A DNA stretch of 64,000 bases from Clostridia bacterium (GTDB taxonomy: Bacteria; Bacillota; Clostridia; Oscillospirales; Acutalibacteraceae): contig JAFYSP010000028.1 of the NCBI GenBank assembly GCA_017559305.1, positions 2,124 through 66,123 on the forward strand, in the 5' to 3' direction. The position numbers and the translations under genes are program-made. Positions 9,024-10,249 of the stretch are shown piece after piece. The notes beneath the pieces were generated by a model. It was given only the letters and a program-made list of their open reading frames with translations. It made no database searches and was not told the origin of the DNA. How positions within the stretch are numbered: the stretch's first letter is position 1; each line of letters begins with the position of its first letter.

Positions 9024-9245
9024 GGCGTTGTGTTCCTAGGGACACAACGCCAACTCTATTCGCCTGAGGCGAGTTCTATTGCTTCGCAGTTGTATTTGGA
9101 CTTCGTCCAAGTGATATTCGCTACGCGAGTTTTGGCGGCGAATAGAATATCACTTTTGCGACAGCAAAAATATCACGCTGACGAAGTCAGCATATCACTA
9201 AAAACTATCAGGAAGTGCGCACTTACTCACCACTTTGTGTGGTAG
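9024..9245. repeat. Array of about 9 short hairpins (4-10 bp stems, 3-5 nt loops) separated by A/T-rich spacers with a recurring ATATCAC motif
   Basis: GGCGTTGTGT/ACACAACGCC, TCGCC-TGA-GGCGA, TTGGAC-TTC-GTCCAA, TCGC-TAC-GCGA, TTGC-GACA-GCAA, GCTGAC-GAA-GTCAGC, ACCAC-TTTGT-GTGGT, and the palindrome AAGTGCGCACTT. Confidence 0.4.
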
Positions 9246-9253
9246 TGCTAATA

Positions 9254-9292
9254 AAAAAGTCGATACGGAAATAAATCCATATCGACTTTTTT
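9254..9292. terminator. Bidirectional hairpin terminator between the bcp 3' region and the tRNA locus
   Basis: AAAAAGTCGATA...TATCGACTTTTTT has A and T runs on both sides. Confidence 0.6.
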
Positions 9293-9308
9293 ACTGTCTT
9301 TAAGAACA

Positions 9309-9421
9309 CGGCGCCAGTTTTGTTGTGCGTTTTTCGAATCATTACAAAATAAAAGCAACCCCTACATAAAGTAGAGATTGCTTTATGGTCGGGGTGACCG
9401 GGCTCGAACCGACGACATCCA
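9309..9421. repeat. 113-bp perfect direct repeat, copy 1 (tRNA-Pro nt 41-76 plus 77 nt of downstream flank including the terminator hairpin)
   Basis: By eye, identical to 9547-9659 at an offset of 238 bp. Confidence 0.9.
9386..9421 (-). pseudogene. tRNA-Pro 3' half only (nt 41-76, including T-arm, acceptor 3' strand and CCA)
   Basis: The reverse complement TGGATGTCGTCGGTTCGAGCCCGGTCACCCCGACCA is identical to the 3' part of the intact tRNA-Pro at 9624-9699. No acceptor 5' strand or D-arm lies upstream. Confidence 0.85.
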
Positions 9422-9538
9422 CGGATTCGCCGCCTCTTGCGGTGCCCGACGACTCGGCGACTGCCGTGCCTCGCTTGTCGACCGCTGCGCCATCCTCATC
9501 TTCGCTCAAGCATCCACAGGATGCGCTCGATGACGATG
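9422..9538 (-). ncRNA. Candidate structured element A (unclassified), between a tRNA-Pro nt 23-37-like fragment (9539-9553) and the orphan 3' half
   Basis: GC-rich. It is a homolog of element B with compensatory stem changes and a conserved core, GAGGATGGCGCAGCGGTCGA...TCGGGCACCGCAAGAGG (minus-strand sense). Confidence 0.35.
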
Positions 9539-9546
9539 CCCAAAAC

Positions 9547-9659
9547 CGGCGCCAGTTTTGTTGTGCGTTTTTCGAATCATTACAAAATAAAAGCAACCCC
9601 TACATAAAGTAGAGATTGCTTTATGGTCGGGGTGACCGGGCTCGAACCGACGACATCCA
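9547..9659. repeat. 113-bp perfect direct repeat, copy 2 (part of the intact tRNA-Pro plus its downstream flank)
   Basis: Identical to 9309-9421. Confidence 0.9.
9584..9621 (-). terminator. Rho-independent terminator of tRNA-Pro (a second copy lies at 9346-9383)
   Basis: In minus-strand sense, GCAATCTCTAC-TTTAT-GTAGGGGTTGC is followed by TTTTATTTT. The two G-U wobbles exist only in the minus sense and would be C-A mismatches in the plus sense. Confidence 0.65.
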
Positions 9660-9699
9660 GTTCCCAAAACTGGCGCGCTACCAACTGCGCTACACCCCG
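9624..9699 (-). tRNA. tRNA-Pro (anticodon UGG), 76 nt with encoded CCA
   Basis: Manual cloverleaf: acceptor CGGGGTG/CACCCCG, D-arm GCGC-AGTTGGTA-GCGC, anticodon stem CCAGT/ACTGG with loop TTTGGGA, T-loop TTCGAGC. Confidence 0.93.
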
Positions 9700-9751
9700 A
9701 TAAATATTAAATTTTTTATTTTTGCGAATCTGCAAAATGGCGTTCCGTTTT

Positions 9752-9866
9752 GCTCACCCTCTTGCGGTGCCCGAAGTTCATAACGGCTTGGAGTGCCTAT
9801 GAACTTCGACCGCTGCGCCATCCTCGCCTCGCTGTATCATCCACAGGATGCGCTTCGGCGACGATG
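9752..9866 (-). ncRNA. Candidate structured element B (unclassified), fused downstream of a tRNA-Pro 5'-half look-alike
   Basis: It shares the core with element A and begins at the same point, right after TTTGGG. The variable hairpin AGTTCATA...TATGAACT sits at the same position as an unrelated hairpin in A. Confidence 0.35.
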
Positions 9867-9903
9867 CCCAAAACTGGCGCGCTGGGGGTTGCGCTACACC
9901 CCG
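9867..9903 (-). pseudogene. tRNA-Pro 5'-half look-alike (nt 1-37) with an aberrant D-loop
   Basis: CGGGGTGTAGCGC-AACCCCCA-GCGCGCCAGTTTTGGG matches the tRNA-Pro acceptor strand, D-stem and anticodon stem and loop. The D-loop lacks the conserved GG, and no 3' half follows. Confidence 0.6.
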
Positions 9904-9940
9904 ATAAATATTAGTTTGAGTATTAATTTTCGCAAAGAAT

Positions 9941-9969
9941 ATAATACAAAAAATTCCCCATTTTGTCAA
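9941..9969 (-). promoter_or_regulatory. Sigma-A type promoter (TTGACA-17 nt-TATTAT) upstream of the 5'-half look-alike, element B and tRNA-Pro
   Basis: In minus sense, CTTGACAAAATGGGGAATTTTTTGTATTATATTC has a perfect -35, 17-nt spacing and a 5/6 match at -10. It lies about 35 nt upstream of CGGGGTG. Confidence 0.55.
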
Positions 9970-10142
9970 GGGGAAAATGACAAATAAAAGTATTATAACA
10001 AGTTCAGCAGCAACAAATCAATGCAGAGCAGGGCATATATGATTTGTGGCGAAGCCACCCATACTTCTTCACTATTCACTATTACCTCTTACTTCCAAAA
10101 ATCCCGTTCACATTTTTAGTGAAAAGTGAAGAGTGAAAAAGT

Positions 10143-10174
10143 AAAATCCCGCCCACTTATGTGAACGGGATTTT
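10143..10174 (-). terminator. Rho-independent terminator of tRNA-Arg
   Basis: In minus sense, ATCCCGTTCAC-ATAA-GTGGGCGGGAT is followed by TTTT. G-U wobbles occur only in the minus sense. Confidence 0.6.
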
Positions 10175-10249
10175 TGGCACCCCCTACGCGAATCGAACGC
10201 ATAACTAACCCTTAGGAGGGGTTTATTATATCCATTTAACTAAGGAGGC
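10175..10249 (-). tRNA. tRNA-Arg (anticodon CCU), 75 nt with encoded CCA
   Basis: Manual cloverleaf: acceptor GCCTCCT/AGGGGGT (2 G-U pairs), D-arm GTTA-AATGGATA-TAAT, anticodon stem AACCC/GGGTT with loop CTCCTAA, T-loop TTCGATT. Confidence 0.8.

Follow-up and report, generated by a model that had tools for sequence, protein, structure and literature searches.

A small structured element fused to tRNA fragments belongs to a multi-copy family of gut and rumen Clostridia that also occurs in phage contigs

Organisation of the tRNA-Pro locus

The DNA analysed here (64,000 nucleotides of contig JAFYSP010000028.1 from a Clostridia bacterium of the Acutalibacteraceae, referred to below as the window) carries a tRNA-Pro locus in which two related structured sequences, A and B, are each joined to a fragment of tRNA-Pro. 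All window coordinates for this locus are read on the minus strand, on which its parts occur in the order: promoter-like sequence, tRNA-Pro 5' half, B, a complementary stretch, a spacer, an intact tRNA-Pro, a palindrome, A and a tRNA 3' part. A and B represent two divergent versions of one discrete structured element (ca. 120-125 nt), named E here, whose homologue loci are designated by L-numbers (L001, L035, L139, etc.).

Element B (9752-9866) was delineated from the sequence and its alignment with A, and is matched by a covariance model with 105.5 bits (E=4e-30). It begins at 9866 directly after ...CCAGTTTTGGG, which ends a tRNA-Pro 5' half look-alike (9903-9867), and is built of a P1-P2 arm followed by GCAGCGGUCGA, a variable P3 hairpin and UCGGGCACCGCAAGAGG, with the conserved core ending at 9758. 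Element A (9422-9538; sequence, alignment and covariance model, 78.4 bits, E=4.5e-22) has the same fold and begins at 9538 directly after GCGCCGGTTTTGGG; its conserved core ends at 9433 and the remaining nucleotides (9422-9432, cggcgaatccg) form a linker ahead of the tRNA 3' part, which from 9421 on corresponds to nt 41-76 of tRNA-Pro. The two copies share the core GGGCATCGTC / AGCGCATCCTGTGGATG / GAGGATGGCGCAGCGGTCGA / TCGGGCACCGCAAGAGG (pairwise alignment and repeat finder, families D3-D6). Changes in their outer stem are compensatory, with CATCGTCATC facing GATGAGGATG in A and CATCGTCGCC facing GGCGAGGATG in B, and their internal hairpins keep the same position with unrelated sequences. A first-pass annotation had proposed, from the sequence, two homologous structured elements at tRNA-Pro breakpoints with a shared core, a compensatory outer stem and a hairpin of fixed place; coordinates, alignment, covariance model and duplex folds all agree with this description. 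The window contains exactly two occurrences of the 14-mer GGCGCAGCGGTCGA, against a chance expectation of 0.16 (up to 2 mismatches), and A and B are the sole matches of the homologue-built covariance model within the 64 kb. A coding reading was rejected, the overlapping ORFs (open reading frames) of 63-84 aa covering tRNA sequence and the substitutions between A and B being compensatory in helices.

The sequence fused to the 5' end of B (9867-9903) is a truncated copy of tRNA-Pro nt 1-37 and falls in repeat family D2 (58 nt, 81% identical to the intact gene plus the upstream taatatttat). Its sole difference from the intact tRNA is a 7-nt D-loop of equal length in which GTTGGTA is replaced by ACCCCCA; this swap loses G18 and G19, while the acceptor, D-stem and anticodon-stem sequences are retained. 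The tRNA 5' halves of L015, L035 and L087 are unaltered, unlike that of the window. Upstream of the 5' half and B, a putative promoter (9941-9969) can be read in the sequence as TTGACA, a 17-nt spacer and TATTAT. On the 3' side of B, the stretch gCAAAACgGaaCGC (9740-9753) is complementary to nt ca. 22-33 of the tRNA half and, in the minimum-free-energy fold of 9735-9880, is predicted to be able to close a helix around B; a like arrangement, matched to the local tRNA, is found in L015 and L035.

The intact tRNA-Pro(UGG) lies between B and A (9624-9699; ARAGORN, and Rfam tRNA model with 64.9 bits). Element A is flanked by a perfect direct repeat of 113 nt (family D1, 100% identical), the first copy of which (9547-9659) comprises tRNA-Pro nt 41-76, a terminator and a tail ending CAAAACTGGCGCCG, and the second (9309-9421) the displaced tRNA-Pro 3' part (nt 41-76, 100% by blastn), terminator and tail fused 3' of A. 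Only 125 nt, corresponding to A and its linker, occur between the repeats, with no recombinase gene or cargo. The palindrome CAAAACTGGCGCC/GGTTTTGGG (9539-9560; inverted repeats I8-I11) ends exactly where A starts, its left arm being the reverse complement of tRNA nt 22-33 and its right arm a copy of nt 23-37.

The whole locus was found at 99.9% identity in three independent metagenome assemblies, so that its arrangement is real and the assembly artefact considered in the first-pass annotation is ruled out. In the window's species (L133, L135 and L136), several metagenome assemblies stop inside or beside the 113-nt repeat. The element family evidently fragments assemblies at tRNA loci. A search for an E-free allele of the window locus by flanking-protein look-ups gave only E-bearing or truncated contigs.

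Distribution and fold of the E family

A pattern derived from the two most conserved blocks of E matched viral contigs and, among contigs from one genome per species, at least 120 loci, almost all in MAGs (metagenome-assembled genomes) of gut or rumen Clostridia. Family counts given below (129 copies, an alignment of 116 copies, and ca. 120 loci) refer to the matches listed. The hosts are Oscillospiraceae, Acutalibacteraceae, Faecousia, Christensenellaceae, Ruminococcus and relatives, to which phage contigs are added; a handful of high-GC matches to the pattern correspond to chance. The search of related genomes that had been suggested to verify the structure has thus yielded homologues with heavy covariation.

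No counterpart of E was found in the resources searched. Rfam 15 (4,227 families) returned only tRNA for the window at gathering threshold, only tRNA and otherwise noise for 9200-10050 up to E=10, and tRNA with one unrelated ZTP riboswitch for 18 homologue loci at gathering threshold, in line with the earlier statement that the elements fit no named RNA family. Comparison of the window locus with phage and plasmid collections by blastn gave tRNA matches only, and literature searches by context and by literal core strings returned nothing relevant to E, surveys of candidate RNAs that were checked for tRNA-linked motifs yielding only ROOL/GOLLD or motifs linked to aminoacyl-tRNA synthetases. To judge from Rfam 15 and the literature accessible to searching, E has not been described before.

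On the tRNA-sense strand, E is composed of two arms. The first is a long irregular helix (P1), often with tandem G.A pairs, together with a GAGCG motif, the P2 hairpin and A-NNN-AGCGA; the second is formed by the helix GCGGU/ACCGC with a conserved GGC bulge and the variable P3 hairpin, and is closed by a covarying pair between the nucleotide just before GCAGCGG and that just after CCGCAA. In the alignment on which the covariation tests are based (A2, 116 copies), covariation was detected in the P2 hairpin, the base of P3, parts of P1 and the closing pair, the latter being formed in 116/116 copies (CG 61, GC 44, UA 9, AU 1 and UG 1). Paired cells amount to 94.1% versus 74.5% in shuffles, none of 500 shuffles reaching the observed value, and cells with double changes to 542 versus 162. 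The covariation score is 0.451, as compared with 0.106 for shuffled alignments and 0.05-0.10 when partners are slid, which bears out the earlier suggestion that selection acts on structure and not on coding. P1, which was aligned poorly by MAFFT, was tested by duplex energies: cognate strands pair with -15.6 kcal/mol versus -8.0 for non-cognate ones and are the better combination in 99 of 105 cases. The most conserved nucleotides of E are unpaired, and 20 of 59 P3 tetraloops are GNRA. One variant fold, in the inner E of L048, has GGGG/CCCC in place of the GCGG/CCGC helix, a compensatory change in an otherwise invariant core.

Covariation, tandem G.A pairs and GNRA loops together indicate an RNA read on the tRNA-sense strand. 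Along with the conserved unpaired nucleotides, they favour the view that E is a functional RNA gene or a cis-acting module, such as a self-cleaving ribozyme or an RNA-processing or protein-binding motif, carried as cargo at the ends of tRNA-integrating elements or phages, with the tRNA fragments as remnants of integrase attachment (att) sites. We regard this as a serious rival to the view defended below, that E is a small insertion, and give it an appreciable minority chance; no ribozyme or other family of Rfam matches E, which speaks against it. The same covariation could reflect hairpins in DNA if E acted as a folded single-stranded site for a recombinase or transposase provided in trans (HUH/Y1, IS110-type or integron-like tyrosine recombinase), but GNRA enrichment and tandem sheared G.A pairs are hallmarks of RNA and we consider this second alternative clearly unlikely.

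Insertion sites at tRNA genes and in other stem-loops

Fifty-four of the 129 copies occur within 300 nt of a tRNA, the nearest tRNA being on the same strand in every case, and about half of the copies are away from any tRNA. The tRNAs located downstream of E are Ser(CGA/TGA), Pro(UGG/GGG/CGG), Leu(UAG/CAA/UAA) and Trp, and those located upstream are Met, Ser(GCU), Trp, Asn, Gln, Pro and Leu. The sequences flanking E reproduce portions of the neighbouring tRNA exactly: on the 5' side they comprise nt 1 to ca. 17-22 (D-loop) or 1-37, and on the 3' side fragments begin at nt 36, 39, 41, 43, 46-48, 54, 58-59 or 70-72. Breakpoints thus fall in the D-loop, anticodon loop, variable region, T-loop and acceptor end, with fragments of Pro, Leu, Ser, Met, Trp, Asn and Gln tRNAs. 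The flank is repeated on the other side of E in 45 of the 82 copies having at least 400 nt on both sides, and the end of the repeated 5' flank is always 48-51 nt ahead of GCAGCGG, exactly at the foot of P1 and after G, GG or GGG. The 5' junction of E is sharp and its 3' junction ragged and variable.

Two layouts were recognised, one with a tRNA 5' part, E, a spacer and an intact tRNA, the other with an intact tRNA, its terminator, a short tRNA piece, E and a tRNA 3' part. The window holds both around one tRNA-Pro gene, and this double layout recurs in L078 (tRNA-Leu) and in L035 (5' half, E, tRNA-Pro, hairpin and E), where the hairpin before the second E (CAAAGCAGGCGCC/TGCTTTGGG) is matched to the tRNA-Pro of that species. 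Tandem arrays of E occur in L087, L049, L059 and L095, an arrangement that would suit a DNA site acted upon in trans.

In all cases the tRNA piece joined to E is a fragment and an intact tRNA is adjacent. This bears on the proposal, made in the first-pass annotation, that the elements are miniature or degenerate tRNA introns, which would be self- or protein-spliced at 37/38 with the window halves joined in cis or in trans to tRNA-Pro. Both window copies do adjoin nt 37 of a tRNA-Pro-like sequence and so lie in the anticodon loop, where the group I introns of bacterial tRNAs and, at 37/38, those of archaeal or eukaryal tRNAs are also found; E is likewise structured, the window offers a 5' half with B and A with a 3' part, and introns are found in tRNA genes as well as in phage structural genes, where E also occurs (see below). 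The 37/38 site fits a BHB (bulge-helix-bulge) intron, but a complete pre-tRNA is lacking, only fragments being present, and breakpoints vary elsewhere. When 135,670 combinations of boundaries were deleted in silico from the 129 copies, ARAGORN recovered no typed tRNA spanning the junction, the only calls being three tRNA-??? at L017, and the intron reading was rejected on this test. Flanks of E never sum to a tRNA and no member interrupts an otherwise complete one; breakpoints reach well beyond the anticodon loop, from the D-loop to the acceptor end, and many copies reside in palindromes resembling REP (repetitive extragenic palindromic) sequences or in other intergenic DNA. Moreover, neither group I nor group II models match E (for Intron_gpI, no match up to E=10 in 9200-10050 and none at gathering threshold in the 18 homologue loci), no group I core is apparent, and we know of no group I core as small as 115-125 nt, ca. 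200 nt or more being the usual size. An intron origin is largely refuted and very improbable.

The surroundings of A recall the tRNA att sites of integrative elements and prophages, in that a direct repeat of a tRNA part (the 113-nt repeat) surrounds an insert and the working tRNA-Pro (9624-9699) is restored, and in that integrases adjoin E in some loci (only L001, L139 and five loci with a serine recombinase). In L001, E is followed by a tRNA 3' fragment and then directly by a tyrosine integrase gene; E with the fragment is present once more elsewhere on this viral contig (L002). In L139 (MT839022.1, 3830-4410, minus strand), an intact tRNA-Pro is preceded by three tRNA-Pro 5' halves (nt 1-37), of which the first leads into E and the other two into an unrelated unit of 150 nt (agcatagacggcatttctgacg...) at the same 37/38 breakpoint. 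This unit, which was absent from all other fetched loci, bears TTTGACCAC repeats resembling integrase arm sites, and two tyrosine integrase genes are located ca. 1.4 kb away. Both loci support E being functional RNA cargo, as do the starts of the 3' fragments in the anticodon loop, T-loop and acceptor end, which fit the known sub-locations that integrases use within tRNA genes, reportedly described by Williams in 2002. However, E differs from inserts at att sites by its small size (ca. 125 nt), the lack of an integrase, the common duplication of 5' parts with D-loop breakpoints and the occurrence of copies far from tRNAs; E-bearing inserts at tRNA genes are only ca. 150-250 nt long and have no other cargo, which speaks against the cargo view.

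Away from tRNAs, E was located by blastn at 26 places of the finished 861-kb replicon pMM35_01 of Vescimonas fastidiosa. The model detected three strong and three weak copies in 40 kb, and three strong and four weak ones in 100 kb of native sequence, to be compared with two copies in the 64 kb of the window, and found no E in two regions of this replicon that belong to recently acquired conjugative elements. Within the 40-kb stretch, three copies can be aligned with almost no differences over the span GTGGGGAGCGA to CAACAGGATCATC. Four of the six strong copies are inserted in the loop of a REP-like palindrome, with GGGNCGATG-TGGG before E and CATCGNCCCCTACG after it (the right arm occurring also as CATCGNCCC); the arms differ compensatorily from site to site, and the same 40 kb contain six empty palindromes with TAGG or TGGG loops. 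As for REP- or MITE-like repeats (MITE, miniature inverted-repeat transposable element), many copies with filled and empty sites are therefore present. In the phage contig L004, E lies between CGTTACCGAGCGGG and AGGGAAGTAACG with an empty twin hairpin 75 nt away, and in L048 (869-1016) one E is nested in another, after GCAGCGG. Sites occupied by E thus include tRNA D-loops and anticodon loops, REP-like palindromes, a phage hairpin and another E, with insertion in one orientation just after G, GG or GGG. Dozens of near-identical copies in REP-like palindromes with empty twins nearby, and nesting, are points against the functional-RNA view, and strand-specific insertion in hairpin loops, including those of REP-like palindromes, fits a folded DNA site. 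The earlier suggestion of a structured mobile-element end targeting the tRNA-Pro anticodon loop came closest among its three options but was too narrow, since other tRNAs, other breakpoints and tRNA-free copies are involved.

A second repeat family was observed in V. fastidiosa (GGGGAAATCGGCGAAGCG-P2-...AGCGAGCCGGTTTCGAGGAAGTGCCCCGATTGGCGG...; L138 6293-6377, 7159-7271 and 20267-20366; L141 10043-10127, 17142-17281, 17619-17704 and 30590-30689). It has the first arm of E and a different second arm, gives 29-38 bits with the E model and is interleaved with REP-like palindromes such as GGGCGACCGCAAGGGTCGCCCCTACGGA.

In phage contigs, E is found between structural genes, after the major head protein gene and beside a possible tape-measure gene, a location that argues for a functional RNA. 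In two phage-like contigs (L005 1627-1800 and L105 6414-6560), E immediately follows the major head protein gene and is contained in a small ORF, and part of its first arm (gccgtgccgacgccgccggtggcgg) is repeated directly downstream.

All-against-all clustering of 1,834 ORFs from 8-kb neighbourhoods revealed no protein shared by the neighbourhoods of E, the top clusters corresponding to ABC transporters, AraC regulators and housekeeping genes. Enzymes expected to act on a folded DNA site (Y1/HUH, DEDD) were not enriched in these neighbourhoods, which weakens that alternative. Large serine recombinase genes are found downstream of the tRNA in L015, L051 and L100 and upstream of E in L028 and L130; they end a few tens to hundreds of nt from the E/tRNA unit and represent the sole recombinase family that recurs in several loci. 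There is no enrichment of -10 boxes just 5' of E that would point to a promoter of its own at the GGG start, nor any orientation bias relative to neighbouring ORFs in the 120-locus MAG set, and both results count against a functional RNA gene; in the annotated stretches of V. fastidiosa, 12 of 13 copies have the sense orientation relative to the flanking genes, which counts for it.

Two further repeats were observed in the window. A perfect 19-nt inverted repeat (CCAAAAATCCCGTTCACAT / ATGTGAACGGGATTTTTGG; 10095-10177) directly follows tRNA-Arg(CCU); it encloses AAAATCCCG direct repeats and is longer than an ordinary terminator stem. Nested inverted repeats on AAGTGATATT / AATATCACTT (pairs I1 and I5; 9088-9199) are located just downstream of the second tRNA fragment.

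Nature of E and comparison with known systems

The reading favoured here, with a probability of about 0.55, is that E is a small mobile or copy-pasted insertion that has no gene of its own and enters the loops of existing stem-loops 3' of G runs. Family membership, the fold, the multi-copy status, the coexistence of filled and empty sites and the sharp 5' junction on which it draws are direct observations, as is the non-intron nature of E. Fitting G-run loops are offered by the tRNA D-loop (G18 G19) and by the anticodon loop of tRNA-Pro (NGG and G37). An insertion in the sole working copy of a tRNA would be lethal, and only arrangements keeping an intact tRNA would persist; fragments fused to E are accompanied by an intact tRNA because copies in tRNA sequence survive only under this condition. 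The flank duplications probably arose by recombination, for which three routes fit equally: a single crossover of a small circle carrying E between two target pieces, an integrase-type exchange in the anticodon loop (as L139 and L001/L002 would suggest) or template switching at G-run microhomology. E may be expressed as RNA by read-through from a strong tRNA promoter or an upstream one, and its conserved loops may serve its own propagation or RNA processing.

Several results weigh against E being such an insertion. Neither a transposase nor an integrase nor a reverse transcriptase is consistently near E, and the best-shared recombinase, a large serine recombinase, occurs in only 5 of ca. 120 loci. 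Terminal inverted repeats are absent, the ends of E (P1 start and CCGCAA-NN-GG) not being inverted repeats of each other, and there is no regular target-site duplication, junctions consisting of 0-2-nt indels or of long variable duplications, so that E is not a classical MITE. The unrelated sequence found at 37/38 in L139 and the integrases nearby suggest that the breakpoint may be an integrase crossover site and not the choice of E. A and B are only 78% identical (mean column identity), that is, old and compensated paralogues; at orthologous loci beside rimM-trmD (L051, L093 and L116), E has been kept with compensatory changes in P2 while the adjacent spacer has fully diverged. Together, this conservation and the divergence of A and B point to selection having acted on the RNA in place over a long time, as would be expected of an RNA gene useful to the host or carried as cargo and less so of a purely selfish repeat. 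An enclosing helix (P0), though clear in single cases, was inseparable from non-cognate controls as a family-wide trait. Most data on E come from MAGs, and the 'invariant' blocks GCAGCGGUCGA and UCGGGCACCGC are partly an artefact of the search pattern; the covariance model R1 recovers the core variants GCCGCGGUCAA / UGGGCACCGC, seen in V. fastidiosa.

The lack of terminal inverted repeats and target duplication is also what a folded DNA site would predict, elements of the IS200/IS605 and IS110 groups typically having neither and some of them targeting REP sequences. However, the P1 hairpin begins exactly at the boundary of E, and the ends of IS200/IS605 elements have spaced sub-terminal hairpins.

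For the following comparisons with REP/MITE-type repeats and with REP-targeting insertion sequences (IS), the known side is taken from general knowledge. E resembles repetitive extragenic and MITE-like repeats (REP/BIME, ERIC/IRU, Correia, RUP) in being short (ca. 125 nt), non-coding, multi-copy and intergenic with stable hairpins, near-identical within V. fastidiosa, able to nest and absent from recently acquired conjugative elements. It differs from them in that it is no simple palindrome, lacks the terminal features mentioned above, has two unlike arms in which unpaired nucleotides are highly conserved and GNRA loops occur, and is kept across families of Clostridia and phages, where it is repeatedly fused to tRNA fragments. 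Like IS elements that target REP sequences (IS1397/ISKpn1, and IS110-family members such as IS621), E enters the loop region of palindromes in one orientation, but it has no transposase gene and none is enriched nearby. Since the loops of E are its conserved part, it is unlike a bridge RNA with programmable loops.

Among RNAs, HDV-like (hepatitis delta virus-like) theta ribozymes are small self-cleaving ribozymes of phages and tRNA-adjacent regions (PMC10879173). E is comparable to these and to other small ribozymes of phage or tRNA neighbourhoods (hammerhead, twister, hatchet, pistol) in size range, context and conserved junction nucleotides, but its P1-P2 / P3 architecture fits none of them and no covariance model matches it, HDV-like/theta, hammerhead, twister, twister-sister, hatchet and pistol being absent from the Rfam 15 scans of the window and 18 loci. 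The orphan structured RNAs ROOL and GOLLD of Firmicutes, frequently located close to tRNAs and in prophages, measure 500-800 nt, are usually single-copy and have Rfam models of their own (PMC5737381); E is likewise an orphan, structured and RNA-like, near tRNAs and in phages, but is ca. 125 nt long, multi-copy and unmatched. No T-box match overlaps E and, by inspection, the NNN of A-NNN-AGCGA does not follow tRNA identity. The folds of HDV-like and hammerhead ribozymes, twister, T-box, retron, bridge RNA, IS200/IS605 ends and integron attC were also compared with E by eye, on general knowledge, and none fits its architecture or gene context. E is filed with small structured repeats and orphan RNAs.

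A bolder proposal, to be taken as tentative and rather unlikely, is that E is a new self-processing RNA, as one option of the first-pass annotation had it, either a small ribozyme or an RNA-guided module that would cut or join RNA (or DNA) at G-rich hairpin loops such as tRNA D-loops and anticodon loops, the chimeras being fixed products of this reaction. If so, E would represent an intron-like mobile RNA that is enzyme-light and differs from both group I and group II introns. On the favoured reading of E as an insertion, its conserved loops, its sharp 5' junction after G runs and its tRNA and phage context would make it a concrete candidate for ribozyme and RNA-processing assays, as well as a system for the study of hairpin-loop targeting without a linked transposase.

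If E is indeed a small mobile insertion, then an abundant RNA-like repeat of well-defined fold, absent from Rfam 15, is present in Clostridia of the gut and rumen and in their phages. Such a repeat would remodel tRNA loci, leaving half-tRNA chimeras beside working genes, and would explain both assembly breaks at tRNA loci and pseudo-tRNA halves that are liable to confuse annotation.

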